DNA of 64,000 nt from an uncultured Gammaproteobacteria bacterium (GCA_964599565.1 CAZRFE010000004.1:3680-67679); one strand, 5' to 3'; counted from the stretch's first letter, positions 15,694-43,181 are shown. The notes: generated by a model from the letters alone, not told the origin. Translations and numbers: made by a program.

Positions 15694-15954
15694 GAGATCC
15701 CCTTTCCCGTTCATTGCAGCGGCGAATGCCGTTGCGCAAGCGTCAAATCTATCGGCTCGCATTCCGCACCGGTATAAAGCGCGTGCATGAGGGGAAGGCA
15801 CTCACGCGCATCGGTGCGTCGCACATTGCGCAACTTAAAGTGTTTCGCGGAATGGAAGACACCGGCGCTCGGCATAGATTTCGGCTCATGCCTGCCCGGT
15901 TCGATGCGCGCATCGCCCGGCAGATTCCGTTTTACCTTGCAACGGAGCAGGAAC

Positions 15955-19840: not shown

Positions 19841-22800
19841 CTATCCGCTCCTGCCGAGCAGCGCGTTCACCATGGTCCGCCACGACAAACCGCTGCTGCG
19901 CGGTTTTGCATCCGCCGCGACACTGCCCGCCTCCTCCACCTGGCGATCGCAGGTTGCGGCGATCTCGCCGAGCGAATTGAGCACGAGCAGTCGCGGCCGT
20001 ATGGTGCAGCCGAGCTCCGTTGCAATGCGCGCGACGACTTTCATCGAGGAGAGCGAGTGTCCGCCGAGGTCGAAGAAGTTGTCGTTGCGGCTGACGGTAT
20101 CGATGCCGAGGATGTCCTGCCAGATGGCGGCGATGCGCCGCTCGGTGTCCGTCTGCGGCGGGACGTGCGCGCTGCGCGGCGCGGCGGTGGGTGACGGCAA
20201 TGCGGCGCGGTTGATCTTGCCGCTCGCGGTGAGCGGCATGGCATCGAGCGCGACGAAGTGCTGCGGGATCATGTACGCGGGCAGCTGCGCGCGAAGATGC
20301 GATTTCAGTTCATCGATGCTCGCGCGCTTGCCGGCATGCAGCGTGAGGTACGCGATGAGCCGCTGGTCGTCGGCGGCGTCGAACGTGCGCACGATGACGA
20401 CGGCGCGCGCGACGGCAGGATGCGCTTCGAGCAGCGCTTCGATCTCGCCAGGCTCGATGCGGTGCCCGCGCAGCTTGATCTGGAAGTCGACGCGGCCGAG
20501 GTATTCGAGTGCGCCGTTCGCGTTGAACCGCACGCGGTCGCCGGTGCGGTAGAGCCGTGCATTCGCCTTGCCGCTGAACGGATCCGCAACGAAGCGTTCG
20601 CGCGTGAGATCCGCGCGGTTGAGATAGCCGAGCGTCACGCCATCGCCGCCGATGTAAAGCTCGCCGGGCACGCCGGGCGGTGTCGGCTGGCCGGACGCAT
20701 CGAGCACGTACACCTGCGTGTTCGCGATCGGGCGGCCGATCGGCACGGGATCGTCGTCGATGCCAAGGGCGTGCGCGGTGGACCACACCGTCGTTTCCGT
20801 CGGGCCGTAGAGGTTCCAGGCGTGTTCCGTGCACGCGATGAGTTCGCGCGCGAGCGGCGCCGGCAGTGCTTCGCCGCCGCTGATCGCGCACAGTTCCGCG
20901 TCGCCCTTCCAGCCGGCGGCGAGCAGCATCTGCCAGGTCGCGGGCGTGGCCTGCATGACGGTCGGCGGCTGGTGCGTGATCCATTCGCACAATGCCGTTC
21001 CGTCCTGCGCGATGTCGCGCGGCACGATGTCCGCATGCGCGCCGATGCAAAGCGGCAGCCACAGCTCGAGCACGGCAATGTCGAACGTGAGCGTGGTGAT
21101 CGCGAGGAAGCGGTCGTTCGAGGTGACGTCGAGCGTTGCCTGCATCGCGCGCAGGAAGTTCGCGACTGCACCGTGCGGCACGATCACGCCTTTCGGCTTG
21201 CCCGTCGATCCCGAGGTGTAGATCACGTACGCGGGATCGTCGGGCGTGTGCGTGATGTGGTTCGGCGAACGCGTCGTGACGCTCGCGTCGGCGGCCGGGT
21301 GCCGGGTCGCCGGCGCGGTCTCCCATTGCCCTTCGGCCGACCGGTCCTGCTGCCGCTCGCGCGACAGCAATGACGCGAGATCAACGGCGCGCCCGCCGAA
21401 GTCGGACAGCGCGTCGTGTTCCGTACCGCGCAGGTTCGTGATGACGGTGCCGGCGTTCGCATCGTCGAGCATCCACTGCAGGCGATCCACCGGTGCATCG
21501 GGATCGAGCGGCAGGTAGGCCGCACCGGCGCGCAGGACGCCGAGCAGTACCGCGGGCAGATCGATGTTTCGCGCAAGCAGCACGCCGACGATGTCGCCGC
21601 GTGCGACACCGCGCGCTGTAAGTGCCGCTGCCACTGCACCCGCCCGGCGTCCGAGCGCGCCGTAATCCATCTGCTCGCCCTGGCTTGAGATGGCAAGCGC
21701 GGAGGGCATCGCTGCAATCTGTTCATCGATCAGCGCATCCACCGTCGTTGCCGGCCAGTCATGTTCCGCACCGCGGGTCCATGCCGACAGCTGCTCGCCA
21801 TCGTGCGCGGACAGCAGCGGTAGCGTGCTGATCGGCTGCGTGGCGTCTTCCGTCACGGCGGCGAGCACGCGCTCGAAGGTCTTCAGCATGCGCGTTGCGG
21901 TGGAGGCCGCGAACAGGTCGGTGCTGTATTCCATGTCGATGTTCATGCCGTCATCGCTTTCGCGGCACCAGAAGGCGATATCCGTCTGCGCGGTGCTGCG
22001 CGGCGGCGTGAGCGGTTCGAACGCGAGGTTGCCGGCGACGAGGCTTTCCTCGGCATCCGGCACCAGTGTCACGAGCGCCTGGAAGATCGGCGTGCGCTGC
22101 GTGTCGCGCGGCGGCTGCACGGCATCGATCACGCGGCTGAACGGCAGCGACTGGTTGTCGAGCGCTTCAAGGCAACGGTCGCGCACCTGCCGGACGAGAT
22201 CGCTGAACGGCGCACTGCGCTCGATATGCATGCGCAGCGCGACGGGATTCATGAGCAGGCCGACGACGCCGTCGCGGTCTGCCTCGTCGCGGTTCGCCAT
22301 CGGCATGCCGAGCACGATCTCGTTCTGCCCGCCGAGGCCGGACAACGTGGCCGCGATGGTCGCCGTCAGCAGCATGAAGCCGGATGCGCGCATGTCGCGC
22401 GCCGCCGCTTCGAGCGTTGCGAGCGTCTCGCGCGGGATGTGCAGGCGAAGCACGTCGCCCTTCCCGCTCGGGAATTCGGGGCGCTCGAAATCCGCGGGAA
22501 GTTCAAGCACGGGCAGCGTGCCGGAGAGTCGGTTCTTCCAGTACGAAAGCTGTCTCTGCGCGGTGCGGCTTTCCAGCTGCTGCGCTTCCCGGCGCTGGAT
22601 GTCCGTGTACTGCGCATGCAGCGCCTGCAGCCTTGGCGCGCGCTGCTCGACGTGCGCGGCGTAGAGTTCCACGAGTTCGCGCTTCAGGATCGCCATCGAG
22701 GTGCCGTCCGCGATGATGTGATCGACGACGAACAGCAGCACATGATCGTCGGGCGCGAGCCGGAACAGCCGGCAGCGGTACAGCGGCGCGTGCATGGCGC

Positions 22801-23347
22801 CGAAGGGTTTTTCCAGCGCGGCTGCGAGCATCGCATGCAGCGCGTTTTCATCGCCGCCGGGAACGGTTTCCGGTTCAAGGTGCGTTTCGCCGACCGATGC
22901 GATGCGCTGCACGGGAGCGGCGTCATGCTCGACGATGACGGTGCGCAGCGCGGCATGGCGCTGCAGGAGATCGTGCAGTGCGGATTCCAGCGCGCGGACA
23001 TCGAGTGCGCCGTGCATGCGAAGCGTGATCTCAAGGTTGAACACGCCGCGCTCGGGCTGCTCGCTTTCGAGATACCACATGGATTGCTGCATCTCGGACA
23101 ACGCGTGCAGGCCGGCAGGCAGATCGCCGAACACCGGGGCTTCGGCGCCGGCGTCATCCAGCGTGGCGTCTTCGCGCAACGCTTCCAGTATCTCCTGCTT
23201 CTGTGCGCGCAGCTCCGCCTGGAGCGTTTCATCGATCACGCCGCGCGGCGCGGTGAGTACAAGACGGTCGTTCTGCTCGCGCAGGTCCACGCCGCGGCGG
23301 CGCAGTTCCCGGACCAGTTCGCGCGCGTTCATGTGCTGTCCGTTCAT
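19841..23347 (-). CDS. NRPS module (here NRPS3): N-terminal TubC-like docking domain - C - A(Gly-like) - T; no release domain
   Basis: 1168 aa. ELVRELRRRGVDLREQNDRLVLTAPRGVI (docking), VVDHIIADGTS (C3), YTSGSTGKPKG, NLYGPTE, GELYIGG, FFDLGGHSL. ATGA overlap with the upstream gene at 23344-23347. Confidence 0.95.
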   Translation of the reverse strand: MNGQHMNARELVRELRRRGVDLREQNDRLVLTAPRGVIDETLQAELRAQKQEILEALREDATLDDAGAEAPVFGDLPAGLHALSEMQQSMWYLESEQPERGVFNLEITLRMHGALDVRALESALHDLLQRHAALRTVIVEHDAAPVQRIASVGETHLEPETVPGGDENALHAMLAAALEKPFGAMHAPLYRCRLFRLAPDDHVLLFVVDHIIADGTSMAILKRELVELYAAHVEQRAPRLQALHAQYTDIQRREAQQLESRTAQRQLSYWKNRLSGTLPVLELPADFERPEFPSGKGDVLRLHIPRETLATLEAAARDMRASGFMLLTATIAATLSGLGGQNEIVLGMPMANRDEADRDGVVGLLMNPVALRMHIERSAPFSDLVRQVRDRCLEALDNQSLPFSRVIDAVQPPRDTQRTPIFQALVTLVPDAEESLVAGNLAFEPLTPPRSTAQTDIAFWCRESDDGMNIDMEYSTDLFAASTATRMLKTFERVLAAVTEDATQPISTLPLLSAHDGEQLSAWTRGAEHDWPATTVDALIDEQIAAMPSALAISSQGEQMDYGALGRRAGAVAAALTARGVARGDIVGVLLARNIDLPAVLLGVLRAGAAYLPLDPDAPVDRLQWMLDDANAGTVITNLRGTEHDALSDFGGRAVDLASLLSRERQQDRSAEGQWETAPATRHPAADASVTTRSPNHITHTPDDPAYVIYTSGSTGKPKGVIVPHGAVANFLRAMQATLDVTSNDRFLAITTLTFDIAVLELWLPLCIGAHADIVPRDIAQDGTALCEWITHQPPTVMQATPATWQMLLAAGWKGDAELCAISGGEALPAPLARELIACTEHAWNLYGPTETTVWSTAHALGIDDDPVPIGRPIANTQVYVLDASGQPTPPGVPGELYIGGDGVTLGYLNRADLTRERFVADPFSGKANARLYRTGDRVRFNANGALEYLGRVDFQIKLRGHRIEPGEIEALLEAHPAVARAVVIVRTFDAADDQRLIAYLTLHAGKRASIDELKSHLRAQLPAYMIPQHFVALDAMPLTASGKINRAALPSPTAAPRSAHVPPQTDTERRIAAIWQDILGIDTVSRNDNFFDLGGHSLSSMKVVARIATELGCTIRPRLLVLNSLGEIAATCDRQVEEAGSVAADAKPRSSGLSWRTMVNALLGRSG
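20052..21835. repeat. direct repeat copy 1 (1784 bp, apparently 100% identical to 23501..25284)
   Basis: All six-frame ORFs in this span recur identically at an offset of +3449 (e.g. 20258..21373 = 23707..24822; 20310..21326 = 23759..24775). Boundaries were read directly from the sequence. Confidence 0.92.
23168..23335 (-). other. NRPS3 N-terminal TubC_N-type (beta-hairpin) docking domain, approximate
   Basis: ARELVRELRRRGVDLREQNDRLVLTAPRGVIDETLQAELRAQKQEILEAL matches the L..L...GV.L....D.L...AP.G.L...L...K..L pattern. Confidence 0.6.
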
Positions 23348-26300
23348 AGCTCGACGATCTCCTGCATGTCATGGTTGCCGGCGATGCGCGCATCGACATC
23401 TTCCGCGAGATCGATCAGCGCCGGTGTTTCGAAGAGGGTCGCGATGGGCAGCGCGCAGCCGAGCTGCTCGCGCAGCACGGTCACGAAGCGCGCGGCGAGC
23501 AGCGAGTGTCCGCCGAGGTCGAAGAAGTTGTCGTTGCGGCTGACGGTATCGATGCCGAGGATGTCCTGCCAGATGGCGGCGATGCGCCGCTCGGTGTCCG
23601 TCTGCGGCGGGACGTGCGCGCTGCGCGGCGCGGCGGTGGGTGACGGCAATGCGGCGCGGTTGATCTTGCCGCTCGCGGTGAGCGGCATGGCATCGAGCGC
23701 GACGAAGTGCTGCGGGATCATGTACGCGGGCAGCTGCGCGCGAAGATGCGATTTCAGTTCATCGATGCTCGCGCGCTTGCCGGCATGCAGCGTGAGGTAC
23801 GCGATGAGCCGCTGGTCGTCGGCGGCGTCGAACGTGCGCACGATGACGACGGCGCGCGCGACGGCAGGATGCGCTTCGAGCAGCGCTTCGATCTCGCCAG
23901 GCTCGATGCGGTGCCCGCGCAGCTTGATCTGGAAGTCGACGCGGCCGAGGTATTCGAGTGCGCCGTTCGCGTTGAACCGCACGCGGTCGCCGGTGCGGTA
24001 GAGCCGTGCATTCGCCTTGCCGCTGAACGGATCCGCAACGAAGCGTTCGCGCGTGAGATCCGCGCGGTTGAGATAGCCGAGCGTCACGCCATCGCCGCCG
24101 ATGTAAAGCTCGCCGGGCACGCCGGGCGGTGTCGGCTGGCCGGACGCATCGAGCACGTACACCTGCGTGTTCGCGATCGGGCGGCCGATCGGCACGGGAT
24201 CGTCGTCGATGCCAAGGGCGTGCGCGGTGGACCACACCGTCGTTTCCGTCGGGCCGTAGAGGTTCCAGGCGTGTTCCGTGCACGCGATGAGTTCGCGCGC
24301 GAGCGGCGCCGGCAGTGCTTCGCCGCCGCTGATCGCGCACAGTTCCGCGTCGCCCTTCCAGCCGGCGGCGAGCAGCATCTGCCAGGTCGCGGGCGTGGCC
24401 TGCATGACGGTCGGCGGCTGGTGCGTGATCCATTCGCACAATGCCGTTCCGTCCTGCGCGATGTCGCGCGGCACGATGTCCGCATGCGCGCCGATGCAAA
24501 GCGGCAGCCACAGCTCGAGCACGGCAATGTCGAACGTGAGCGTGGTGATCGCGAGGAAGCGGTCGTTCGAGGTGACGTCGAGCGTTGCCTGCATCGCGCG
24601 CAGGAAGTTCGCGACTGCACCGTGCGGCACGATCACGCCTTTCGGCTTGCCCGTCGATCCCGAGGTGTAGATCACGTACGCGGGATCGTCGGGCGTGTGC
24701 GTGATGTGGTTCGGCGAACGCGTCGTGACGCTCGCGTCGGCGGCCGGGTGCCGGGTCGCCGGCGCGGTCTCCCATTGCCCTTCGGCCGACCGGTCCTGCT
24801 GCCGCTCGCGCGACAGCAATGACGCGAGATCAACGGCGCGCCCGCCGAAGTCGGACAGCGCGTCGTGTTCCGTACCGCGCAGGTTCGTGATGACGGTGCC
24901 GGCGTTCGCATCGTCGAGCATCCACTGCAGGCGATCCACCGGTGCATCGGGATCGAGCGGCAGGTAGGCCGCACCGGCGCGCAGGACGCCGAGCAGTACC
25001 GCGGGCAGATCGATGTTTCGCGCAAGCAGCACGCCGACGATGTCGCCGCGTGCGACACCGCGCGCTGTAAGTGCCGCTGCCACTGCACCCGCCCGGCGTC
25101 CGAGCGCGCCGTAATCCATCTGCTCGCCCTGGCTTGAGATGGCAAGCGCGGAGGGCATCGCTGCAATCTGTTCATCGATCAGCGCATCCACCGTCGTTGC
25201 CGGCCAGTCATGTTCCGCACCGCGGGTCCATGCCGACAGCTGCTCGCCATCGTGCGCGGACAGCAGCGGTAGCGTGCTGATCGGTGCGTCGTTTCCTGCA
25301 AGGCGCGCCATGAACTGTTCGAGTTCGCGAAACCGCCGCTGCATGCCTTGCGGCGTGAACAGGCTCGCGTCGTACGTGCATTCGAAGAGCACGCCGTCCT
25401 TGCCATCGACGGCATTGATGAACATCTCGAAGTTCTCGAACCGGCGCGGCGTGTTCTCGATGCGCGCGCGCAGGCCATGGAACCCGGGCACGTCATTGCG
25501 GTGATCGATGTTGAGAATCACCTGCACGAGCGGCACGATCGCGGGATCGCGCGGCACGCGCAGCGCATGCACGATGCGTCCCATCGAGCAGTCGCGGTGC
25601 TCCCATGCATCCGACATCGTTTCGCCGATGTGATCGAGATGCGCATCGAAACCTGCATCCGGCGCAAGCCGGCTGCGCAACGGAAGCAGGCTGACGCAAT
25701 GGCCGACGAGACCTTCGAGACCCTCCTCGACCTGCCCTGCCGCCGGCACGCCGAGAATGAGATCGTCCTGCCCTGTCAGCCGGTGCAGGTAGGCGGCGAC
25801 GGCCGCGGCGATCACGGTGAAACCTGTCACGCCGCGCTTCATGCCGCGCGCACGAAGCTTCTGCATGACTTCCGCGGGAATGCGATGGCGAAGATAGTGC
25901 GCGGGAAATGCGCGACGGCCGGGACGCGGGAAATCCTTCGGCAGTTCGAGATTCGATGGCGCATCGGCGAGCGCGCGCTGCCACGCAGCTTCCTGGTCGC
26001 GGCGCGTATCCGCATCCACCTCCGCCTGGCGCTCCGCATACGCCGCGAACGATGGCGCGGGTTCCGAATCGTCCGCTTCACCGCGCACCGCGGCGCTGTA
26101 GAGCTGCGCGAGTTCATCGAACAGCACGCTGAACGACCAGCCATCGCAGACGGTGTGATGCGCGGTGAGCAGCACGGCATGGCTGTAGTCGTCGATGTGA
26201 ACGATGCGGCAGCGAAACAGCGGACCGTTGATGAGGTCGAACGGCGCGGTCACCTCATGCGCGCGCAATGCATCCAGCGTCGTGTCGCTGTGGCGAAGAT

Positions 26301-26628
26301 CCACGGGCGTGACATCAAGCGCGATCTCGCGCGCGATGCACAGCGCCTGCCCGTCCGGGCCGAATGTCGCGCGCAGCGCGTCGTGCCGCTGTGCAAGCCT
26401 GGATAGCGCGTGCGCCATGGCGCCGATATCGAGATGGCCGTGCAGTTCAAGGCAGCGGGATTCGTTGTACGCGCACGATGCCTCGGGGCTGAGCGATGCG
26501 GCCGCCCAGATCTCCCGCTGCGGTTCCGTGGCGGGCACGCTCGCCAGCAGGTCGGCGGCGAACGGGTTGAAGTCGACGGGCGCCGACTCCTTATATATAT
26601 GTTCAAGACTCCTGTCGGCAGGATTCAT
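23344..26628 (-). CDS. NRPS module (here NRPS2): C - A(Gly-like) - T
   Basis: 1094 aa. The N-terminus VDFNPFA...VPATEPQREIW is a C-domain type seen after PKS/aminotransferase modules. AHHTVCDGWS (C3). A-T identical to NRPS3. RBS GAGGGAG upstream of ATG 26628. Confidence 0.95.
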   Translation of the reverse strand: MNPADRSLEHIYKESAPVDFNPFAADLLASVPATEPQREIWAAASLSPEASCAYNESRCLELHGHLDIGAMAHALSRLAQRHDALRATFGPDGQALCIAREIALDVTPVDLRHSDTTLDALRAHEVTAPFDLINGPLFRCRIVHIDDYSHAVLLTAHHTVCDGWSFSVLFDELAQLYSAAVRGEADDSEPAPSFAAYAERQAEVDADTRRDQEAAWQRALADAPSNLELPKDFPRPGRRAFPAHYLRHRIPAEVMQKLRARGMKRGVTGFTVIAAAVAAYLHRLTGQDDLILGVPAAGQVEEGLEGLVGHCVSLLPLRSRLAPDAGFDAHLDHIGETMSDAWEHRDCSMGRIVHALRVPRDPAIVPLVQVILNIDHRNDVPGFHGLRARIENTPRRFENFEMFINAVDGKDGVLFECTYDASLFTPQGMQRRFRELEQFMARLAGNDAPISTLPLLSAHDGEQLSAWTRGAEHDWPATTVDALIDEQIAAMPSALAISSQGEQMDYGALGRRAGAVAAALTARGVARGDIVGVLLARNIDLPAVLLGVLRAGAAYLPLDPDAPVDRLQWMLDDANAGTVITNLRGTEHDALSDFGGRAVDLASLLSRERQQDRSAEGQWETAPATRHPAADASVTTRSPNHITHTPDDPAYVIYTSGSTGKPKGVIVPHGAVANFLRAMQATLDVTSNDRFLAITTLTFDIAVLELWLPLCIGAHADIVPRDIAQDGTALCEWITHQPPTVMQATPATWQMLLAAGWKGDAELCAISGGEALPAPLARELIACTEHAWNLYGPTETTVWSTAHALGIDDDPVPIGRPIANTQVYVLDASGQPTPPGVPGELYIGGDGVTLGYLNRADLTRERFVADPFSGKANARLYRTGDRVRFNANGALEYLGRVDFQIKLRGHRIEPGEIEALLEAHPAVARAVVIVRTFDAADDQRLIAYLTLHAGKRASIDELKSHLRAQLPAYMIPQHFVALDAMPLTASGKINRAALPSPTAAPRSAHVPPQTDTERRIAAIWQDILGIDTVSRNDNFFDLGGHSLLAARFVTVLREQLGCALPIATLFETPALIDLAEDVDARIAGNHDMQEIVEL
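23501..25284. repeat. direct repeat copy 2 (1784 bp)
   Basis: See copy 1. Encodes PISTLPLL...FFDLGGHS, the complete A domain plus the T domain up to the Ppant serine, in both NRPS genes. Confidence 0.92.
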
Positions 26629-26639
26629 TGTGTTCTCCC

Positions 26640-31106: not shown

Positions 31107-31108
31107 GT

Positions 31109-34100
31109 TCAGCGTTCGAACCTCCCCGTCTGCGTGGATGGCCGCCGGCGCCGCTGCATCGCTGCGCGCCGTACGGCGCCGCGACGTCCCGCATCGCGCA
31201 GGCGTTCCTCGGAATCGTCCGGTTCGCCGTGCGCGAGCCAGTGCGCGAGCGCGGCGATGGTCGGATGCTGGAACAGCCTGACGATGGGGAATGCGCGCTT
31301 GAGCTTCCTGCTCAGGCGTTCGTGAATCTCGATGAGTGCGACAGACTGCGCGCCGACGTCGAAGAAGTTCCGGTCGATATCGAAATTCTCGACGCCCAGC
31401 ACATCGCGGCATACCGATGCAACAAGCGCGGTCATGTCATCGCCGTTGCCGTCATCATCGGCGGCAATCGCGTCACCCGTTGCCGCCGCCTCTTCCTGCA
31501 ACGCGGTATCTGTCGCGCGGCGCATCGGTTTCTTATCCGCATCCAGCACGGTCGTTTCCGTGCGGTTCTGCACGGAGACATGATTGATGACCGTGGCAAC
31601 GCGCACGTCCGGCGTGCGCGTGATCGTGCGCAGTATGTCGATGAGATCGTTGCCGAGCGCTTCGACCGCGGCGTCGTCAAGGAGCGCCTTGTCGTGGAAG
31701 AACTCGATGCGGTGCGCAGGGCCCGGCATGATCGCGACGGTGAGCGGGTAGTTGGTGCGCACGCCGGCGGAGAACTCGCGCACCTTGATGCGCTCGCCCC
31801 AGCGGCGCGTCGCATCGCCGGTCGCGTAGTTCTGCAGAACGAGCAATGCATCGAACAGTCGCGCGCCCGCCGGGCTGCCCGACCATTCATGCACTTCAAG
31901 CGGCGAGACATTCTGGTAGTGATTCACGTCCGCCTGCGTGGCGCGCAGCGACGACAGCCACTCATCGACGCGCTGCTCGGGATTGATGCGCACGCGCACG
32001 GGAAGATCGTTCAGGAACGGACCTACAGTGTTCGCGGCATCCGCAACACCTGCCGTGCGCCCGGAGAATGCAACGCCGAGCGTGACATCGAAACGCAGGG
32101 TGATGCCGGAAAGCAGCAGCGCCCACGCGGCCTGGTACACGACGCCGGGCGTGAGCCTGAGCTTGCGCGCAAGCTGCATGACACCGGCGCCGAGTTCCTC
32201 GGGCAGCGCGATGCTTGCATGCCCTGCATCGTGCGGTCCTGCGCGGCCGTCATCCCTGCGCCGGCTGCGCGTGATCAGCGTGCGCTGCGCACGTCCGCCG
32301 AGATGCTCGCGCCAGAACGCCGCGTACTCGGTGAGATCGCGGTTCATCAGCCACGCGATGTAACTGCGGTACGAGCCGGGCGCATCGAGCACGGGTTCGC
32401 GTCCGGCAACCTGCGCGTCGTGCAGTTCGCCGAGTTCCTGCGCGAGTATCGGCCACGACCAGCCATCCACCAGCGCCTGGTGATGGCTCCAGACGAGCAT
32501 CCACCGGTCATCGCCCGCGCGAATCAGCGTCACGCGCGTCAGCGGTGCGACATGCAGCTCGAACCCCTGCCTCCGGTCCGCATCGAGAAATTCCTTCAGC
32601 CGCTGCTGCTGCGTGGTCTCGTCCAGCAACCGCCAGTCCGTCTTCTGCAGGCGGAACTCGACGTGGCGAAGCACGACCTGGTGCGGCTCGCCAAGACCGC
32701 GATCGACGAACACCGTGCGCAGCGCATCGTGGCGGCGCAGGAGTTCCCGCCATCCCGCCTCGAACGCACCTTCATCGATGCTTCCCTGCAGATGGAACAC
32801 CCATTGATCGAAACCCACGTCCCTGTCGGTGCCGGACAGCGCGTGATGGAGTCGCTGGATCGGCGAGAGCGGCAGGATTTCCTCGACGTTCTCGAGCGCA
32901 ACGGGAAACGCATCGAGCTCTTCCTGCGAGAGACGCGCAAGCGGGAAATCCACGGGCGAGCGCACGATGCCGTTGCGCGTGCGGCAGTGACGGATGATTT
33001 CATGCAGCGCATCGGCGTAATGGCCGGCAAGCGCGCCGACATCCGCTTCGGGAATGGCTTTCGGGCTGAAGCGGAACTCGAATTCCATCCGGTCATCGTG
33101 CACGGCCGCGGTGACCGTCAGCGCGTGCGCAAGGTGATTCTCCGCGCCGCGCTCGCGGCCGGTATCCTCGAAGACATGCTGGAACATGCCGCTTGCCAGT
33201 GCGCGCTCGAACTGGCCGCGGTAGTTGAACAGCACCGGCGCACGCTGTGCCTGCGCGCGGCCGAATGCGACGGCGCCGTTTGCGCGCAGGTAACGCAGCA
33301 TTCCCCAGCCCGCACCCTGGTGCGGCGCGCTTCGCATGCGCGTCTTTACATCGCAGATCAGGCGCGCAGGATTGCCGGCATGCGACTGGTCAAGCGCAAC
33401 CGGCTGCAGTACCGAGAACCACCCCACCGTGCCGGATACATCGAGTTCGCCGAAATTGTCGCTGCGGCCATGCCGCTGCACATCCACGCGCAACTGTCCG
33501 GCATGCGGCCATTTCACGGCGACCGCGCGCGACAGTGCGGCGAGCAGGAGTTCGTGCGTTTCCGTTCCATAGGCGTCATGGATGCCGCCGAGCAGCGCGG
33601 CGGTCGCCGGCGCTTCGAGCGTGATGCGCACCGTGCGCGCATCACGCTCCCTGCCGGGATCGTGCACGGCATCCGCAAGCGCGCTGTCATCCAGCGCATC
33701 GATCACCTGCTCCCAGTACGCATGCTCGCTGCCGATGAGCGCGGACTGAGCCTGGCGTTCAAGATGCGCCGCCCATCCGGCGTAGCTGATCGAACGCCGC
33801 ACGAACGTGGCGTCATGACCTTCCTCCAGCGCGCGGTATGCCGCATCGAGATCCTTGAGGATGATCGTCCACGATGCGGCATCGACGGCAAGCCGGTGGA
33901 TGACGATGAGCAGTCGCGCACCGTCTTCCAGCCCGCCGGTGAAGTGCGCGGCACGCACGAGCAGGCCGGCACTCAGGCTGAGCGATTCCTGGATTTCCTG
34001 CGTGATGAGTCCGACCGCTTCGCGGCGTTCCGCTTCATCGAGGTGATCAAGCTCGATGCGCGAGAACTCCAGCGCATCGGCCGGCTCGACGGGCTTCGAC

Positions 34101-37100
34101 ATCCACTTCCCGTTCGCATCGCGCAGGAACCGGACGTGCAGCGCGTCATGGCGTCGCACGACGTCGAGCATCGCGCGTTCGAGCAGTTCGACATTCGTGT
34201 CAGGCGGCAGTCGGAACAGAAAGCCTTCGTTCCAGTGATCGGGTTTCTCGAATCCCTGGTCGAAAAACCAGCGCTGTATCGGCGTCAGCGCCCACGGGCC
34301 GTCCTTGTTCACGTCGGCGTCCTCCTCTTTGGCAACGGCAGTTCCCGCATGGCTCGCAAGATCTGCGAGCACGGGATGGTTGAAGACATCGCGCGGCATG
34401 AGTTCAAGGCCCGCGGCGCGCGCGCACGCCACGAGCTTGAGCGCGAGTATCGAATCGCCGCCGAGACCGAAGAAATCCTCGTTGCGGCCGACATCGCCGC
34501 GCCCGAGCACTTCCTTCCACAGTCCGGCGAGCGTGATTTCCGCCGGCGTGCGCGGCGGATCGGTGACGGCGGCGGCAACGACGTCCGCGGGGTCTGGCAG
34601 CGCCTTGTAATCGATCTTGTTGTTCGCGTTCATCGGCAGCGCCGGCAGCGCGATGAACATCGCCGGCAGCATGTGCTCCGGCAGCTGCCGGGCGAGCTGC
34701 TCGCGCAACGACGCTTCCGTGTGCTCGCCGTTGTCCGCGACGTAGTACGCGAACAGCCGCCGGCTGCCATCCGCGGTTTCGCGCGGCACGATCAACGCCT
34801 CCGCGATGCCGGGGATGCGTTTCAGCGCGCTGGAGATCTCGCCGAGGTCGATGCGAAACCCGCGTATCTTGACTTCGTTGTCCTCGCGGCCGAGGTAGCA
34901 CAGTTCGCCGTTTCGCATGCGTCTTGCGAAATCGCCGGAACGGTACAGGCGCGCATTGCCGCTGGCTGCATGCGGATCGTCGATGAAACGCCGCGCGTTG
35001 AGTTCGGGACGGTTGAGATATCCGCGTGCAACGCCGGCGCCGCCGACGCAGATCTCGCCGCGCACGCCCGGCGGCACGTTGCGTCCGTCCGCGTCCAGCA
35101 GCCGCACGTAGAGATCCGGCAGCGGCCAGCCGACGAGCGAGCCGCTGTCGTTCGCGACATCGTGACGCGTGATGCGCCGGTACGTGACATGCACGGTGGT
35201 TTCCGTGATGCCGTACATGTTGATGAGCTCTGGGCTGTCATCGCCATGACGGTCGATCCAGCCGGAAAGGCTGCCGAGGTCGAGTTTCTCGCCGCCGAAG
35301 ACCACGCAGCGAAGCGCGGGAAGTTCACGCGTCGCTTCCGCGTCGATGCGCATCAGTTCGCGAAACGCCGAAGGCGTCTGGCTGAGTATGGTCACGCCGC
35401 GATCGGCAAGCAGCTGGTGGAAGGCATCGGGCGAGCGCGCGATGTCGCGCGTGACGATTTCAAGACGTCCGCCGTGCAGCAGCGCACCCCATATTTCCCA
35501 GACGGAGAAATCGAACGCAAAGGAATGAAACAGCGTCCAGACATCGCGGTCATCGGCATGCAGCCATGACTGGCAGGCATCGAACAGGCGCACGACATTG
35601 CGCTGCGTGACCATCACGCCTTTCGGCTGTCCCGTCGAGCCCGAGGTGTAGATGATGTAGGCGAGACTGTCGCCGGTTGCATCCATGGCCGGATCGGTTT
35701 CGTTCGCCTCGCCCGGTGCGACCGAAGGCTCGATGAACGCAAGCGAGGATCCGGGCAGCGCGCTGCGCGCCGATCCGGTCGCGACGACGAGATCGACGCC
35801 GGAATCCTCGATGAGAAACTGCAGGCGTTCCTCGGGATACGCAGGATCGAGCGGCAGGTAGCCGGCGCCGGACTTCAATATGCCGAGCATGCCGACGATC
35901 TGCTCGATGGAACGATCGACGCAAAGCCCGACGAGACGGTCCGCGCGCGCGCCCTTTTCGATCAGGCGATGTGCAAGACGATTCGCGGCCGCGTTCAGCT
36001 CCGCGTAGGTCATCGAGCGCGCACCGCAGGCGATCGCGATTGCCCCGGGATTCGCGGCTGCGCAATGCGCGAAGCGCGCGGCGATCGTGCCCGGCAGGTT
36101 CGGCGACGCGTCGACATCGTGCGGCCAGCAACATGGCAGCGCATCCTCGGCGCGCAGGCAGGAAACGTCCTTCACCGGTATCCACGGTTCGCGTGCAAGC
36201 CTCGTCAGCAGGTTCGCGTAGTGATCGAGAATGCGCGCGGCGGTTTCCTCGTCCGCGACCTCGGGTGCGCAGGCAAGACGAAGGCGGATATCCTCCTCGC
36301 CGTACACCTGTACGTGCATGTCCGCGAGCGGCGGTGCATCGTGGCGGAAATCGCGCGGCCCTTCACCGGCAAGCAGATCCTCGAGCGCCGCCATGGGATC
36401 GCGCAGGTCGAATTCGAGAACCGTATCGAACAGTGCGGCGGATGCATCGGTGCTGCGTTCGATATCCGCAAGGCGGCTGTTCTCGTGCTCGCGCACCAGG
36501 CGATGCGCATCCCGCATCTGCCAGAGAAGCTCGAAGGCGTTCGCGTGCGCGATGCGCGCGCGCAGCGGCACGATGTTCATGAAGGAGCCGAGCGCATCTT
36601 CAAGACCGGGCGGCCCGCTGCGCCGGCAGGAACGCAGCACGCCGAAGGCGACATCGTCGCTGCGCGCATAGTGTGACAGCAGCAGCGCCCAGGCCGCCTG
36701 CGCGAGATTGTTGAGCGTGACGTCCGCAGCCTTGTGCAGTCGGCGCACGCCGTCGCTTGTCGCCGCATCCAGCCGCCGCTCGACATGCACGTAATCCGGT
36801 GCATCCGCGGCGCGCTCGCATCGCGGCAGATCGATGCGCACCGGGTTGAAGTCGCGAAAGCACTCGCGCCAGAACGCGGCATCCGTGGCTTGCGTATCGT
36901 CGCGCTCCCAGCCCGGGGAGCCGGAAACGAGCGCGGCCGTCACCTCGGCATCGTCGCCGCCGGCGCGTATGGTGCGGTAGTTCGCGAACAGTTCGCGCAG
37001 CAGCGTGGACATGGAACGCCAGTCGAGCAGCGCGCGGCGCAGCGTCCACACCACGCGCGATGACGCATCGTCCCAGTTGACGAGCGCGACGTGAAACAGC

Positions 37101-37438
37101 GGCGGCGTGCCGCTATCGAAGCGCATGCGCATCCTGGCCGAACGAAACTCCGCGAAGCGCATCTCGCGTGTCGCGTCATTCGCAAGATCAAGCATCTCGA
37201 TCTCGATGTCGCCGCCCGTCGTCCCGCCGGCGTGCGCGTCATGGAATGCGTTGCGCAGGATGGCGTGCCGTGCGGCAAGATTGCGCCACGCCGCGGTGAA
37301 CGCGTCGCGATCGACGGGATTGTCGAGCGTGAAGACGATCTGCTCGGCGTGATCCCGTTCCAGCCGTGACCCGCCGTCGAACAACGCGCCGGCGCGCGGA
37401 GCGCTGCTGCGGCACGTCTGCCCGGTATCTGCTGACAT
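31109..37438 (-). CDS. NRPS (here NRPS1): C*(degenerate) - A(Thr-like) - T - E*(degenerate) - C - T
   Basis: 2109 aa. Motifs are located by residue count in the domain features that follow. Confidence 0.95.
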   Translation of the reverse strand: MSADTGQTCRSSAPRAGALFDGGSRLERDHAEQIVFTLDNPVDRDAFTAAWRNLAARHAILRNAFHDAHAGGTTGGDIEIEMLDLANDATREMRFAEFRSARMRMRFDSGTPPLFHVALVNWDDASSRVVWTLRRALLDWRSMSTLLRELFANYRTIRAGGDDAEVTAALVSGSPGWERDDTQATDAAFWRECFRDFNPVRIDLPRCERAADAPDYVHVERRLDAATSDGVRRLHKAADVTLNNLAQAAWALLLSHYARSDDVAFGVLRSCRRSGPPGLEDALGSFMNIVPLRARIAHANAFELLWQMRDAHRLVREHENSRLADIERSTDASAALFDTVLEFDLRDPMAALEDLLAGEGPRDFRHDAPPLADMHVQVYGEEDIRLRLACAPEVADEETAARILDHYANLLTRLAREPWIPVKDVSCLRAEDALPCCWPHDVDASPNLPGTIAARFAHCAAANPGAIAIACGARSMTYAELNAAANRLAHRLIEKGARADRLVGLCVDRSIEQIVGMLGILKSGAGYLPLDPAYPEERLQFLIEDSGVDLVVATGSARSALPGSSLAFIEPSVAPGEANETDPAMDATGDSLAYIIYTSGSTGQPKGVMVTQRNVVRLFDACQSWLHADDRDVWTLFHSFAFDFSVWEIWGALLHGGRLEIVTRDIARSPDAFHQLLADRGVTILSQTPSAFRELMRIDAEATRELPALRCVVFGGEKLDLGSLSGWIDRHGDDSPELINMYGITETTVHVTYRRITRHDVANDSGSLVGWPLPDLYVRLLDADGRNVPPGVRGEICVGGAGVARGYLNRPELNARRFIDDPHAASGNARLYRSGDFARRMRNGELCYLGREDNEVKIRGFRIDLGEISSALKRIPGIAEALIVPRETADGSRRLFAYYVADNGEHTEASLREQLARQLPEHMLPAMFIALPALPMNANNKIDYKALPDPADVVAAAVTDPPRTPAEITLAGLWKEVLGRGDVGRNEDFFGLGGDSILALKLVACARAAGLELMPRDVFNHPVLADLASHAGTAVAKEEDADVNKDGPWALTPIQRWFFDQGFEKPDHWNEGFLFRLPPDTNVELLERAMLDVVRRHDALHVRFLRDANGKWMSKPVEPADALEFSRIELDHLDEAERREAVGLITQEIQESLSLSAGLLVRAAHFTGGLEDGARLLIVIHRLAVDAASWTIILKDLDAAYRALEEGHDATFVRRSISYAGWAAHLERQAQSALIGSEHAYWEQVIDALDDSALADAVHDPGRERDARTVRITLEAPATAALLGGIHDAYGTETHELLLAALSRAVAVKWPHAGQLRVDVQRHGRSDNFGELDVSGTVGWFSVLQPVALDQSHAGNPARLICDVKTRMRSAPHQGAGWGMLRYLRANGAVAFGRAQAQRAPVLFNYRGQFERALASGMFQHVFEDTGRERGAENHLAHALTVTAAVHDDRMEFEFRFSPKAIPEADVGALAGHYADALHEIIRHCRTRNGIVRSPVDFPLARLSQEELDAFPVALENVEEILPLSPIQRLHHALSGTDRDVGFDQWVFHLQGSIDEGAFEAGWRELLRRHDALRTVFVDRGLGEPHQVVLRHVEFRLQKTDWRLLDETTQQQRLKEFLDADRRQGFELHVAPLTRVTLIRAGDDRWMLVWSHHQALVDGWSWPILAQELGELHDAQVAGREPVLDAPGSYRSYIAWLMNRDLTEYAAFWREHLGGRAQRTLITRSRRRDDGRAGPHDAGHASIALPEELGAGVMQLARKLRLTPGVVYQAAWALLLSGITLRFDVTLGVAFSGRTAGVADAANTVGPFLNDLPVRVRINPEQRVDEWLSSLRATQADVNHYQNVSPLEVHEWSGSPAGARLFDALLVLQNYATGDATRRWGERIKVREFSAGVRTNYPLTVAIMPGPAHRIEFFHDKALLDDAAVEALGNDLIDILRTITRTPDVRVATVINHVSVQNRTETTVLDADKKPMRRATDTALQEEAAATGDAIAADDDGNGDDMTALVASVCRDVLGVENFDIDRNFFDVGAQSVALIEIHERLSRKLKRAFPIVRLFQHPTIAALAHWLAHGEPDDSEERLRDAGRRGAVRRAAMQRRRRPSTQTGRFER
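31229..31441 (-). other. NRPS1 C-terminal carrier domain (T2) with no cognate A domain
   Basis: FFDVGAQSVALIEIHERL. The Ser2032 codon lies at 31343-31345. Confidence 0.75.
31604..32881 (-). other. NRPS1 condensation domain (DCL-like), intact HHxxxDG (approximate)
   Basis: ILPLSPIQRLHH..., SHHQALVDGWSW (aa 1652-1660). Confidence 0.8.
32954..34306 (-). other. NRPS1 epimerization-like domain with the catalytic His replaced (approximate)
   Basis: WALTPIQRWFF is an E-type N-terminus. The motif reads IHRLAVDAASW (aa 1181-1187; nt 33878-33898) instead of HHxxxDGxSW. Confidence 0.7.
34349..34546 (-). other. NRPS1 T domain 1 (E-associated type, GGDSI)
   Basis: FFGLGGDSILALK; Ser996. Confidence 0.8.
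34589..36091 (-). other. NRPS1 adenylation domain, Thr-like specificity code (approximate)
   Basis: YTSGSTGQPKG, FAFDFSVWE, NMYGITETTVH, GEICVGG, NNKIDYKAL. By-eye 10-residue code DFWSVGMVHK, versus the canonical Thr code DFWNIGMVHK. Confidence 0.75.
36119..37381 (-). other. NRPS1 N-terminal condensation-like domain lacking the HHxxxDG histidines (approximate)
   Basis: The C3 position reads VVWTLRRALLDWRSMS (aa 134-140; nt 37019-37039). Confidence 0.7.
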
Positions 37439-37666
37439 GGATGAGATGTCCTCCCTCGAGCGCGTGATTTATATGGCCGTCCTTGTGAACTGGACGGTTG
37501 CGGATGCCGTGAAGCGAGCGAAAGCGTGGCGCCTGCCGGCCGCGCTCCCCACAGCGGACCGATAACTGGATTTCTAGTGGATATGAGGCAAACCCCATAT
37601 AAGGCTTAGGCAGCAATTTGGGTTTGCTGCGTACACGCTTGCCTGTAGTGGAGTTCCAACGCGGGG

Positions 37667-37696
37667 AAAAAAAGAAAAACGGCGCACGGGCGCCGT
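37667..37696 (-). terminator. rho-independent terminator after the response-regulator gene
   Basis: The minus strand reads ACGGCGC-CCGT-GCGCCGT followed by TTTTTCTTTTTTT. Confidence 0.75.
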
Positions 37697-37775
37697 CTGA
37701 ATTCGAGGGAAGATATCGCGCGGCACGCCGCGAAAGGCATTCGCATGAATGCCTTTCGCCGCATGGAACGTGCGG

Positions 37776-40494: not shown

Positions 40495-40712
40495 TCGCGC
40501 ACTCCGGAATCCTGCCTGAAGGACGCCCGCCGCCGCCTCGTGGCGTTGCCGCCTGCGAGCCGGTACCGGCTGGCGTGGAAAATGAAAACCCGCAGGTAGT
40601 CTCAGGTGGCAGGAGTGTGGCATTCCATCCGTTAATTCATTCATTTCGGATGCAGCGGCACGCCCAGCCGCGACGCAGGTCACGTTATGTTTCCCCGGTG
40701 CGCGGCGTGCAT

Positions 40713-42780: not shown

Positions 42781-42789
42781 ATTGCACCG

Positions 42790-43149: not shown

Positions 43150-43181
43150 CTGGCCTCCCCCCCTGTGTCATTTCCAGTGGA

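Follow-up and report, generated by a model that had tools for sequence, protein, structure and literature searches.

The hybrid NRPS-PKS locus at positions 19841-37438 (minus strand) of the 64,000-nt stretch analysed here (the window) raises the question of whether an assembly line with several degenerate catalytic sites, an A-less module and no release domain is still functional and, if so, what becomes of its product. The 17.6 kb segment, from an uncultured soil gammaproteobacterium, contains four uninterrupted, translationally coupled ORFs. With high confidence, it is considered a genuine four-gene NRPS-PKS operon with its own phosphopantetheinyl transferase, held under purifying selection and derived in a lineage-specific manner from a widespread family, with homogenised A-T regions and a decaying aminotransferase domain (AMT).

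All features of the assembly line lie on the minus strand. The 2109 aa ORF g1 (31109-37438) encodes the loader NRPS C1-A(Thr)-T1-E-C2-T2, g2 (26640-31106; 1488 aa) a PKS module KS-AT(malonyl, HAFH)-ACP-AMT with a conserved C-terminal tail, g3 (23344-26628; 1094 aa) the module C3(HHTVCDG)-A(Gly)-T3, and g4 (19841-23347; 1168 aa) TubC_N dock-C4(DHIIADG)-A(Gly)-T4 without a release domain. Pfam detected Condensation x3, AMP-binding and PP-binding x2 in g1; KS, AT, PP-binding and Aminotran_3 in g2; C-A-T in g3; and TubC_N dock-C-A-T in g4. This order is identical to the one given from motifs in a sequence-only reading of the window, including the docking domain on g4 (TubC_N) and the A-less module, which is supported by HMM and alignment results. 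The core motifs of all A, T, KS, AT, ACP, C3 and C4 domains are intact. The gene g1 has its own SD GAGGGAGGA and ATG, both kept in orthologs. An 11-nt gap between g2 and g3 (26629-26639) and an ATGA overlap between g3 and g4 (23344-23347) follow from the ORF coordinates, as the same reading had reported; the TGAacATG junction between g1 and g2 is also present, but spans 31104-31111 and not 31106-31111.

In the loader protein, the degenerate N-terminal condensation-like domain C1 (36104-37366) reads RRALLDW in place of HHxxxDG and has the lowest conservation among the domains. The adenylation domain A1 (34589-36076) gave the code DFWSVGMVHK, the same Thr-like code as read before, while the orthologs carry DFWN[IV]GMVHK, the canonical Thr code. 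It is followed by the carrier protein T1 (34334-34546; LGGDSI) and by the E domain (32939-34291), a true epimerisation-domain homolog that reads HRLAVDA and lacks both catalytic residues (HH to HR; EGHGRE to QRHGRS). The DCL-type condensation domain C2 (31574-32896; SHHQALVDG) has Gln at the catalytic-His position (SHH-Q-xxxDG), and its conservation equals that of catalytic domains. The A-less carrier protein T2 (31169-31381; GAQS) is predicted to feed the KS and is of the type that serves as loader T in distant family members. The degeneracy claimed earlier for C1, E and AMT was thus found at the motif level, but the degenerate sites number four instead of three because C2, which had been overlooked, is also counted. 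All relatives share the degeneracy of C1, E and C2, and no member of the clade has a catalytically competent C1 or E. Overall, the layout of g1 suggests that part of a larger NRPS (DCL-C, A, T, E, DCL-C) was joined to T2, the ancestral loader carrier. C2 is of the DCL type, lacks the His and is paired with a dead E domain, and its condensation role is putative.

The PKS protein g2 has a KS with Cys-His-His and an AT with the motifs GHSIG and HAFH, the latter as in the proposed malonyl type. In its class-III aminotransferase domain (26832-27989), the PLP lysine is replaced by Ala (YGA, against YGK in MycA), and about 19 aa are missing at each of two internal sites. Of the family's 68 AMTs, 65 keep the PLP lysine, which is absent only in the window and the related loci L083 and L084; AMT dN was 0.220 without the lysine against 0.030 with it, an approximately sevenfold difference. 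The identical dead AMT occurs in at least three independent SRA assemblies. Decay of the AMT is confined to the subclade that contains the window. The ultra-conserved C-terminal tail of g2 (ARLGRRPDGQPGWFVPDPDRPGRYREL, 26673-26765; 84-94% identity) is presumed to be a docking element towards g3, and the AMT-deleted family members L021 and L033 still carry a g2-type tail.

Both A domains of g3 and g4 have the code DILQ(I)GLVWK, matching the Gly assignment made previously. The C-terminal tail of g3, E-x-E-[VIL]-[FV]-E-[LI], is likely the partner of the g4 dock. The protein g4 ends 37 aa past its T domain with a conserved tail (19844-19900), and this basic-hydrophobic terminal-T tail is conserved in about 30 family loci. 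The absences of TE, MbtH and transporter noted earlier were also observed here: tblastn of a family TE and a family alpha/beta-hydrolase against the window gave no match, a six-frame search found no MbtH signature, and there is no exporter besides EPS export genes. A block of 1,784 bp, which starts at the C-A linker, covers A and reaches the T-core serine, is 100% identical between g4 (20052-21835) and g3 (23501-25284), and therefore very recent gene conversion has homogenised both Gly modules over their A-T regions. Two Gly modules do exist, as described, but their duplication is ancestral and their identical look comes from this recent 1.78-kb conversion.

Five metagenomic orthologous clusters (L081, L083, L084, L085 and L086) contain the same genes and flanks at about 60% identity. 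Across every domain, dN/dS was 0.05-0.26 (C2, 0.095-0.11; C3, 0.09-0.14; E, 0.14-0.26; C1, 0.17), values that are comparative only since dS (0.6-1.9) is near saturation. C2 changes no faster than a working domain does, despite the missing His. Strain-level SNPs over 6.8 kb comprised 11 synonymous and 4 nonsynonymous changes (pN/pS 0.12, binomial P = 1.3e-4).

These data bear on two readings under which the locus would be less than it seems. That the cluster is a decaying, non-functional relic without a product is very improbable: the degenerate motifs of C1, E, C2 and AMT, the A-less module, the missing TE, and the AMT deletions with raised AMT dN in the window's subclade would fit decay, but the ORFs remain open and coupled over 17.6 kb, the other core motifs are all intact, the same degenerate states are kept in orthologs diverged to 40-70% identity, a dedicated PPTase is retained, and selection is evident both among present-day strains and in each domain. 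The identical block could also be an assembly artefact, with one A sequence threaded through both modules of a genome that really has two different A domains; perfect identity over this length is unseen in the orthologs, and the sequence comes from a 70.8-kb contig of the metagenome type. This is improbable as well, given that three independent short-read assemblies stop about 49 nt inside the block (in copy 2), the branch signature of a true repeat, that the block edges fall at natural recombination points (C-A linker and T-core motif), and that A3/A4 paralogs elsewhere match each other as well as their orthologs (70% in L083), which fits recurrent conversion. Both modules are Gly-specific in all orthologs, so the predicted product would be unchanged even by an artefact.

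Directly downstream of g4 and convergent with it is a gene for an Sfp-type 4'-phosphopantetheinyl transferase (18402-19214, plus strand), syntenic in the orthologs; like the non-canonical C2 and the 1,784-bp identity, it had escaped the sequence-only reading. Further leftward come genes encoding an NAD-dependent sugar epimerase (17327-18400, plus) and a UDP-glucose/GDP-mannose dehydrogenase (15787-17310, plus), which keep their synteny with the NRPS-PKS both in orthologs and in the Lysobacter/Frateuria loci of the family, and then a priming phosphoglycosyl transferase gene (14266-15801, minus; TIGR03013 EpsB_2, XrtA/PEP-CTERM type), the first of an EPS locus that extends leftward to position 2. 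This flank exceeds the NCBIfam cut-offs for XrtA/PEP-CTERM EPS genes. Upstream, the intergenic region (37439-37775, minus) contains the terminator of a response regulator gene (37698-37677) and the g1 promoter/leader with ortholog-conserved blocks. The NarL/GerE-type response regulator directly upstream (37776-38429, minus), syntenic and 98% identical to orthologs, is a candidate regulator of the operon.

The wider family shares a core of an amino-acid loader A-T, KS-AT-ACP-AMT, C-A(Gly)-T and then C-(A Gly)-T, with a predicted chemistry of one malonate, no reduction and beta-transamination. Loader codes vary (Val, Pro, Ser, Thr), while Gly almost always comes next; sister loci have terminal C-T modules without an A domain, and most members have no TE, although some carry one. 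No characterised pathway of the same layout was found among the systems compared here. The view that the architecture matches no characterised pathway holds within this comparison, but the architecture is not unique, with five orthologous clusters and a family that is widespread yet uncharacterised. Of 80 family loci, 26 have Bac_transf within 10 kb, a count that overstates independent events because many positive loci are related Xanthomonadales; about 1-2% is expected by chance from general gene densities. Positive loci include Xanthomonadales, Burkholderiales, Rhodobacterales, Acidobacteriota and Verrucomicrobiota, and in three phyla the lines lie inside polysaccharide loci of the Wzx/Wzy or XrtA/PEP-CTERM type. 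In Dyella (L057), genes for a PPTase, EpsB_2, a JmjC-like protein, the NRPS-PKS, a GT2, a deacetylase and a Wzy-like protein abut on one strand, and in L055 and L003 Wzx, Wzc, Poly_export and BBP2_2 adjoin the assembly line. The alpha/beta-hydrolase is conserved in 12 family loci, and its best and sole NCBIfam match is 'hydrolase 1, exosortase A system-associated'. EPS genes are missing from the 10 kb around the Variovorax loci and several others of the family, and some members bear a TE, so the EPS link is neither universal nor proven. The EPS neighbourhood, described earlier merely as the location, is probably part of the system, recurring across phyla.

On balance, the locus is best read as a working line that builds Thr-ketide-Gly-Gly and passes its product to a partner in trans, plausibly EPS machinery. 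A1 would load Thr onto T1 and probably also onto T2, which has no A domain of its own; the family has repeated cases of A-less C-T modules supplied by an adjacent A domain. C2 would join Thr to the T2-bound residue non-canonically or be bypassed, and the KS would add malonate to the aminoacyl or dipeptidyl unit on T2, giving a gamma-amino-beta-ketoacyl-ACP. Relatives with an intact AMT would form a 3,4-diamino acyl unit; in the window's strain the ketone would remain, and with the AMT dead C3 may or may not accept the beta-keto intermediate. C3 and C4 would add Gly-Gly. With no release domain in cis, the chain bound to T4, a carrier whose C-terminal tail is conserved family-wide, would be taken by a trans partner, most plausibly the membrane-bound polysaccharide machinery of the XrtA/PEP-CTERM-type EPS locus (UDP-sugar dehydrogenase, epimerase, deacetylase). 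This EPS hand-over is put forward tentatively; if true, the peptide-ketide decorates or couples to a glycan or lipid-linked precursor.

A free diffusible peptide-ketide made by an orphan BGC, such as a Thr-(Thr)-ketoacyl-Gly-Gly acid or a cyclised derivative, is rather unlikely. Release would then occur by an unlinked type II thioesterase/hydrolase or by spontaneous intramolecular aminolysis, free gamma- or beta-amines being able to attack thioesters, and the EPS genes would be mere neighbours or co-regulated biofilm genes. Hydrolytic or cyclising release does exist in the family, where some members end in a TE or adjoin the alpha/beta-hydrolase; the Variovorax loci have no EPS neighbours, and no transferase moving the chain from T4 to a sugar, or other glycan-acyl transferase, was identified in the window. 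However, neither the window nor the five orthologs have a TE or hydrolase in the sequenced flanks, only EPS export genes could serve as exporters, the EPS association recurs over three phyla in operon-like arrays, and the family hydrolase is itself of the exosortase-A-associated type.

Compared with known systems, the best solved-structure match of the AMT is the MycA aminotransferase (6kfm, E = 1e-56), and the line shares with MycA (KS-AT-ACP-AMT-C-A-T) a non-reducing, malonyl-extending PKS module and a class-III aminotransferase followed by C. MycA begins with a fatty-acyl ligase, whereas the window line begins with a Thr-type amino-acid A domain, has an AMT without the PLP lysine, splits AMT and C between two proteins that a presumed docking tail connects, and has only two downstream modules and no cyclising TE. 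The suggested analogy to iturin, mycosubtilin and microcystin therefore holds for the AMT match and fails on the defining features (loader, dead AMT, no cyclising TE); an iturin/microcystin-type pathway was rejected, the loader being an amino-acid A domain and not a fatty-acyl ligase or upstream PKS. Microginin-type loaders (A-ACP-KS-AT-ACP-AMT, then NRPS modules) make a short linear peptide, and their A domain activates a fatty acid. Compared by description, they share with the wider family the order A-T-KS-AT-ACP-AMT and a short linear peptide, but the family has Val/Pro/Ser/Thr-type codes with Asp235 and Lys517, Gly-Gly next and an EPS-locus context.

The glycopeptide-NRPS X domain is a degenerate C/E-like scaffold (HRxxxDD). 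The E domain of g1 resembles it in keeping the E fold, in reading H[RQK]xxxD[AF] and in being under purifying selection as for a non-catalytic scaffold, but no P450 partners are encoded nearby, and it matches true E domains (PvdL/TycB/GrsA, 1e-50 to 1e-66) far better than the X domain 4tx2 (6e-06).

XrtA/PEP-CTERM EPS loci contain a sub-cluster of acyl-CoA ligase, ACP, PLP-decarboxylase and hydrolase 1/2 (TIGR03098-03101), for which we know of no assigned function. The window flank and the Dyella neighbour are of the EpsB_2/XrtA type, the family hydrolase matches hydrolase 1, and both systems place adenylating and PLP enzymes, together with a carrier protein, next to EPS genes. In the window, however, the pathway that uses carrier proteins is a complete multimodular NRPS-PKS, and no exosortase gene was identified there. 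Dlt places D-Ala on teichoic acids and AlmEFG places Gly/diglycine on Vibrio cholerae lipid A, each with a single stand-alone A protein, a single stand-alone carrier protein and a dedicated membrane acyltransferase (DltB/AlmG). They provide a precedent for delivery of amino acids, including Gly-Gly, by an A domain and a carrier protein to a surface glycoconjugate instead of release as a free metabolite; no DltB/AlmG-type transferase was found in the window, and the proposed likeness is of function only.

The closest catalogued proteins are those of Milano et al. 2013 (PMC3870968, Table 2), who listed bioinformatically 'A-CP-KS-AT-CP-PLP ... Nrp-Mal-Gly' proteins from Pedobacter heparinus (C6XWU5), Thiocapsa marina (F9UAS6) and Salinisphaera (F7QBN5), without known product or function, and also recorded embedded PLP domains without the Schiff-base lysine. 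The family shares with them the architecture and the predicted aa-malonate-Gly product. New relative to that catalogue are the C-A-T-E-C-T loader protein with its degenerate C and E domains, the TE-less end and the EPS linkage.

The four minus-strand genes of the NRPS-PKS line were annotated with Pfam and NCBIfam as g1 (31109-37438, 2109 aa; C-A-T-C/E-C-T), g2 (26640-31106, 1488 aa; KS-AT-ACP-Aminotran_3), g3 (23344-26628, 1094 aa; C-A-T) and g4 (19841-23347, 1168 aa; TubC_N dock-C-A-T), which is exactly the domain order given by the sequence-only reading, a careful and overall correct account of the anatomy. The genes g1 and g2 meet at TGAacATG, an 11-nt gap lies between g2 and g3, and g3 and g4 overlap at ATGA. 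The strong Shine-Dalgarno sequence of g1, GAGGGAGGA, is invariant in four orthologous upstream regions and the regulator gene before g1 has its own terminator at 37698-37677, indicating that g1-g4 form a transcription unit of their own. In the leader/promoter region of g1 (37439-37676, minus strand), several blocks were invariant in an alignment of four orthologous loci, including CTAC..C.AGCGTGTA, AAATTGC.G.C.A and TG.GGGGA.CG.GG; they may serve to bind a regulator or form a leader RNA. An Rfam scan assigned no family to this leader, and no sigma-70 consensus match was found in it; the only Rfam match there, to the mmgR/suhB sRNA family (37662-37739, minus strand), was sub-threshold (26.9 bits against a gathering score of 41), coincides in part with the regulator gene's intrinsic terminator and probably reflects no more than its hairpin and T-run. 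Open reading frames antisense to the NRPS genes, defined from stop to stop and clustering as 'conserved families', were discarded as high-GC artefacts.

The A domains matched Pfam AMP-binding with E = 1e-83 to 1e-88, and their codes include Asp235 and Lys517. The Stachelhaus codes extracted by alignment were DFWSVGMVHK for g1, whose loader A domain thus has an amino-acid code of Thr type, and DILQ(I)GLVWK for g3 and g4, in agreement with the codes previously read by eye. The phosphopantetheine serine is kept in all five T/ACP domains, the KS has the Cys-His-His triad with the motifs TACST, HGTGT and KGNIGH, and the cis AT has GHSIG/HAFH. No KR, DH, ER, MT or TE domain was found in g1-g4 by Pfam or NCBIfam. 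The last gene, g4, ends 37 aa past T4, with a terminal release domain (TE, R or terminal C) absent, and no release domain was present in five orthologous clusters either. A search of the window for the MbtH signature gave no match.

The five C-type domains were aligned to one another as well as to orthologs and solved structures, and the catalytic second His of HHxxxDG was present only in C3 of g3 (HHTVCDG) and C4 of g4 (DHIIADG). In g1, C1 has RRALLDW in place of HHxxxDG, and its first ~35 residues are not alignable to a C domain. The E domain is a genuine homolog of epimerisation domains (PvdL, bacitracin synthetase, TycB and GrsA, E = 1e-50 to 1e-66) with HH changed to HR (HRLAVDA) and the EGHGRE glutamate motif changed to QRHGRS, and homology to the glycopeptide X-domain was rejected (4tx2 at 6e-06 versus 1e-66 for true E domains). 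C2, taken earlier as intact, is in fact non-canonical: in ungapped HMMER alignments its SHHQALVDG is one register off McyB (NHHHIILDG) and bacitracin synthetase (TNHHILLDG), so the catalytic second His is Gln, and the orthologs have Lys or Met at this position. The varying residue at the catalytic position (Q/K/M) argued against C2 being a dehydrating (modAA, AmbE-like) C domain, for which AmbE also scored 44 bits versus 244 for the DCL domain of McyB, and against a beta-lactam-forming (NocB-like HHHxxxDG) C domain. The class-III aminotransferase domain (AMT) of g2 was best matched by the mycosubtilin MycA aminotransferase (6kfm, 1e-56); its PLP-lysine is replaced by Ala (YGA versus YGK in MycA), and two stretches of about 19 residues each are missing.

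The same four genes were found in five other metagenomic contigs (L081, L083, L084, L085 and L086) with about 55-65% protein identity. The upstream flank (stressosome-linked histidine kinase, PAS-GGDEF-EAL protein and NarL-type regulator) is kept in L081, L085 and L086, which are those with the flank sequenced, and the downstream flank (PPTase, epimerase and UDP-sugar dehydrogenase) is kept in L081, L083 and L086, with a different gene downstream in L084. The degenerate motifs of C1, E and C2 are present in all five clusters, indicating that these oddities are old and stable. Strains within the window's own population vary over 6.8 kb at 11 synonymous and 4 nonsynonymous sites (pN/pS 0.12, binomial P = 1.3e-4). 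Per-domain dN/dS, to be read as relative only with dS near saturation, was 0.095-0.11 for C2 versus 0.09-0.14 for C3, so that C2 evolves like C3, and on the same relative scale E (0.14-0.26) and C1 (0.17) evolve faster yet are still constrained. These selection data contradict the reading of the operon as a non-functional relic, which is very improbable.

The AMT lysine is kept in 65 of the 68 AMT domains of the wider family and lost only in a single subclade comprising the window, L083 and L084; the orthologs L081, L085 and L086 retain this PLP-binding residue. The AMT dN was 0.030 for L085-L086 (Lys kept) and 0.220 for L083-L084 (Lys lost), and the dead AMT was found in all independent assemblies of the window's population. 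From these sequence comparisons, we conclude that the operon is functional, that C1 and E are kept as non-catalytic parts, that C2 has a role that matters, and that beta-transamination has been abandoned in the window's subclade.

Two features had escaped the sequence-only reading, namely a gene for an Sfp-type 4'-phosphopantetheinyl transferase (PPTase; 4PPT_N + ACPS, 18402-19214) convergent to g4, and a block of 1,784 bp with 100% identity between g4 (20052-21835) and g3 (23501-25284). The identical block spans the C-A linker and the whole A domain, up to the T-core serine. Comparable DNA identity between the Gly modules was not found in the orthologous clusters, and the two paralogs of an A3/A4 pair there resemble one another about as closely as they resemble their orthologs (e.g., 70% in L083), which suggests recurrent conversion. 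Since both modules are Gly-specific in every ortholog, the Gly modules were already duplicated in the ancestor and have become identical only recently. Three independent short-read assemblies (SRR11843815, SRR11843817 and SRR11843822) all stop about 49 nt inside the block, and such breaks are the behaviour of a real repeat. In addition, the left ends of three Logan contigs (L087-L089) all correspond to window ~32020, 915 nt upstream of g2 and inside C2 of g1, suggesting a second assembly-graph branch, from a repeat or strain variation.

In a scan of one genome per species, about 600 loci with g2 relatives were found, and 80 of them were analysed with home-made domain HMMs and code extraction. 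The family has a coherent core, in which an amino-acid loader A-T is followed by KS-AT-ACP-AMT, C-A(Gly)-T and C-(A Gly)-T, and g2 is 40-52% identical to the family PKSs. The window shares with it a non-reducing KS-AT-ACP-AMT fed by an aminoacyl carrier protein, and T2, directly preceding the KS, is of the same type as the loader T ahead of the KS in distant members. The loader codes across the family are mostly Val-like and sometimes Pro or Ser, with Thr in Bradyrhizobium and Acidobacteria. Gly follows the AMT almost without exception, and DILQxGxxWK was found in g3, g4, all orthologs and most family loci. In Xanthomonadales/Burkholderiales, the NRPS protein usually has no TE and the last module is sometimes A-less (C-T).

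The simple A-T loader is not found in the window, where C1-A-T1-E-C2 extends ahead of the loader T, a variant feature of the window clade only. Both C1 and C2 most closely resemble the DCL-type C domains found behind E domains, and close relatives of the T1-E-C2-T2 half are confined to the window clade; the simplest history would be that a fragment of a larger NRPS replaced the A domain of the loader. The architecture first described as unrecognised is an elaboration, specific to one clade, of a widespread orphan family rather than a one-off. No characterised product for this architecture or family emerged from the literature searched. Proteins of the order A-CP-KS-AT-CP-PLP with a predicted 'Nrp-Mal-Gly' product, all of unknown function, were catalogued by Milano et al. 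2013 (PMC3870968, Table 2). The Collimonas carenaemin locus was rejected as the same system, as was that of a Lysobacter genome-mining paper, which mentions only an uncharacterised single-PKS-module hybrid.

Two terminal tails are conserved. The PKS proteins of the window and of Xanthomonadales/Burkholderiales share the tail ARLGRRPDGQPGWF.PDP.RPGRYRE, an HMM of which matches the window clade and about 35 loci, and the last ~31 residues of g2 (ARLGRRPDGQPGWFVPDPDRPGRYREL; 26673-26765, minus strand) have 84-94% identity across orthologs, far above any catalytic domain. The g2-type tail still terminates PKS proteins that have lost their AMT: the AMT is wholly absent and the tail kept in Pseudoxanthomonas sp. 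PXM02 (L021) and Luteimonas soli (L033), with the order C-A(Ser)-T-KS-AT-ACP-TAIL, indicating that AMT loss recurs. These two loci also have a C domain ahead of the loader, an independent parallel to the remodelling of the window clade. The second tail, short and basic-hydrophobic, closes the last carrier protein (…RLRRLFGRR or …LLGRVFGGW in the family and …WRTMVNALLGRSG in the window, at 19844-19900, minus strand) with the motif W[RK]x[VM]xxL[LF]G[RK]x, and comparable final-T tails were found in about 30 family loci, including L017 and L024, two loci with a TE before the final T (C-T-TE-T).

The left flank of the window is an XrtA/PEP-CTERM-type EPS locus with NCBIfam scores above the cut-offs for EpsB_2 (TIGR03013, 492.7 versus 393), the export protein (TIGR03027, 198.3 versus 180) and the chain-length determinant (TIGR03007, 331.1 versus 279), and also contains a tyrosine kinase, a beta-barrel protein, a deacetylase, glycosyltransferases and two AsnB-type amidotransferases. 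The polysaccharide neighbours of the line are EpsB_2, UGDH, an epimerase, GT2 and a deacetylase. Neither an exosortase XrtA gene nor PEP-CTERM substrates were found among the ORFs scanned, and the EPS locus extends past the left window end. In 26 of the 80 family loci, a priming-transferase homolog (Bac_transf) is encoded no more than 10 kb from the assembly line, and homologs of the dehydrogenase, epimerase and GT2 are also frequent. In Dyella (L057), genes for PPTase, EpsB_2 (566 bits), a JmjC-like protein, the NRPS-PKS, GT2, deacetylase and a Wzy-like protein abut on one strand; an acidobacterial locus has Bac_transf, cupin and Wzx ahead of the line and GT4 behind it, and in a verrucomicrobial locus Wzx, Bac_transf, Wzc, Poly_export and a BBP2_2 barrel adjoin the line. 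The EPS neighbourhood is not an accident of one genome. An alpha/beta-hydrolase common to 12 family loci had as its sole NCBIfam match 'hydrolase 1, exosortase A system-associated', at a sub-threshold 82 bits. Canonical exosortase-A loci (a TIGRFAMs property) contain an acyl-CoA ligase, an ACP, a PLP enzyme and two hydrolases of unknown role, and by analogy the NRPS-PKS looks like an elaborated counterpart of this module.

Within the EPS region, a J-domain (DnaJ) protein of 227 aa (13575-14258, plus strand) adjoins the priming glycosyltransferase, and its homologs lie beside Bac_transf in 9 of the family loci analysed (e.g., L024 5673-6671). The AsnB-type amidotransferases are encoded at 2-1276 and 2451-4325 (minus strand); the latter matched the 'XrtA/PEP-CTERM system amidotransferase' TIGR03108 below the cut-off (301 bits versus 817), with weaker matches to lasso-peptide and macrolactam cyclases. 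Enzymes of this kind could act on uronic acids, either by amidating them or, more speculatively, by joining an amine-bearing peptide to them.

On the right flank, the annotation bears out the stressosome/c-di-GMP block first noticed by eye: a complete stressosome (41732-44087, minus strand; RsbR 43182-44087, RsbS 42790-43149, RsbT 42352-42780 and PP2C ~41732-42330) lies directly upstream of, and feeds, an RsbU_N-HisKA_3 histidine kinase (40713-41870) and a PAS-GGDEF-EAL protein (38470-40923), as well as a NarL-type regulator. Kinase, GGDEF-EAL protein and regulator are syntenic with the NRPS-PKS in L081, L085 and L086, where the fetched flanks end before the stressosome genes. The NarL/GerE-type response regulator upstream of g1 (37776-38429, minus strand) is 98% identical (212/217) to its L081 ortholog and 97% to those in L085 and L086, while its neighbours (histidine kinase, GGDEF-EAL protein and NRPS genes) are only 55-65% identical; the constraint on the regulator is unusually strong.

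The inventory of parts, the intact sites, the substrate codes, the conservation and the lack of a release domain in cis are established by the analysis, and the biosynthetic steps are inferred. A1 is predicted to load Thr onto T1, and probably T2 too, and C2 would either join Thr-Thr non-canonically or be bypassed. The KS would add one malonate to give a gamma-amino-beta-ketoacyl thioester, which the window's strain would no longer transaminate, Gly-Gly would be added by C3 and C4, and a trans partner would remove the chain from T4. For this last step, hand-over of the chain from T4 to the polysaccharide machinery is tentatively favoured, at less than even probability, because synteny extends across phyla, a TE is missing from the ends of the lines and the terminal tail is conserved. 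The main rival, only slightly less probable, is a free metabolite released by an unlinked hydrolase. In the 64-kb window, a homolog search found none of the family's TE, alpha/beta-hydrolase, JmjC or Wzy-like proteins. In its full form, the hand-over model is somewhat doubtful: the TE-less line would make no free product and would build a short amine-rich peptide-ketide (an amino-acid-derived gamma-amino-beta-keto or 3,4-diamino acyl-Gly-Gly), which the last carrier, with its conserved amphipathic C-terminal tail, would deliver at the membrane to a polysaccharide or lipid-linked sugar belonging to the XrtA/Wzx-Wzy EPS pathway encoded alongside.

If this model is true, it would represent a new class of NRPS-PKS-made glycan decoration and would assign a first role to the puzzling 'ligase/ACP/PLP-enzyme/hydrolase' modules seen in exosortase-type EPS loci. 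As orphan NRPS-PKS clusters are commonplace, the operon by itself carries modest weight, and the EPS linkage and the domain-decay series matter more. The latter is a natural domain-inactivation series at different stages, with dead C/E domains retained under purifying selection, an AMT that is intact in sister lineages, Lys-less and shrinking in the window and fully deleted elsewhere, and a putative conversion tract that has just homogenised two modules. Such a series helps to understand the remodelling of assembly lines and to tell which 'dead' domains the structure cannot do without. The core family (amino acid, malonate with beta-amination, Gly-Gly) occurs widely among soil Proteobacteria, Acidobacteria and Verrucomicrobia; no product is known for it, and the vicinal-diamine chemistry predicted for it is unusual. 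Its repeated EPS embedding across phyla and frequent lack of a release domain lead to a hypothesis testable in culturable Dyella, Lysobacter and Frateuria, namely that thiotemplate machinery may decorate extracellular polysaccharides.

Compared with known systems, the likeness to iturin and microcystin pathways drawn in the sequence-only reading holds for the KS-AT-ACP-AMT cassette only, and the loader, the AMT Lys, the TE and the AMT-C fusion differ. Iturin/mycosubtilin-type lines start from a fatty-acyl-AMP ligase and ACP loader, whereas the window has a Thr-type loader; their competent AMT with the PLP-Lys is absent in the window and present in L081, L085 and L086, and in place of a heptapeptide released by a TE that macrolactamises via the beta-amine, only two modules follow here, with no such TE. 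In microcystin/nodularin McyE, the AMT module is fed by PKS modules (Adda chain) and fused to C-A-T-C, whereas in the window the module is preceded by an NRPS protein and its own protein terminates in a tail, the C domain being carried by the following one. Dlt and AlmEFG systems have a membrane acyltransferase (MBOAT DltB or AlmG-like) beside the A/carrier genes, and no DltB/AlmG-like acyltransferase Pfam family was found among the window ORFs scanned. The resemblance of Dlt and AlmEFG to the window is functional only, and both are functional precedents for hand-over to a surface glycoconjugate.
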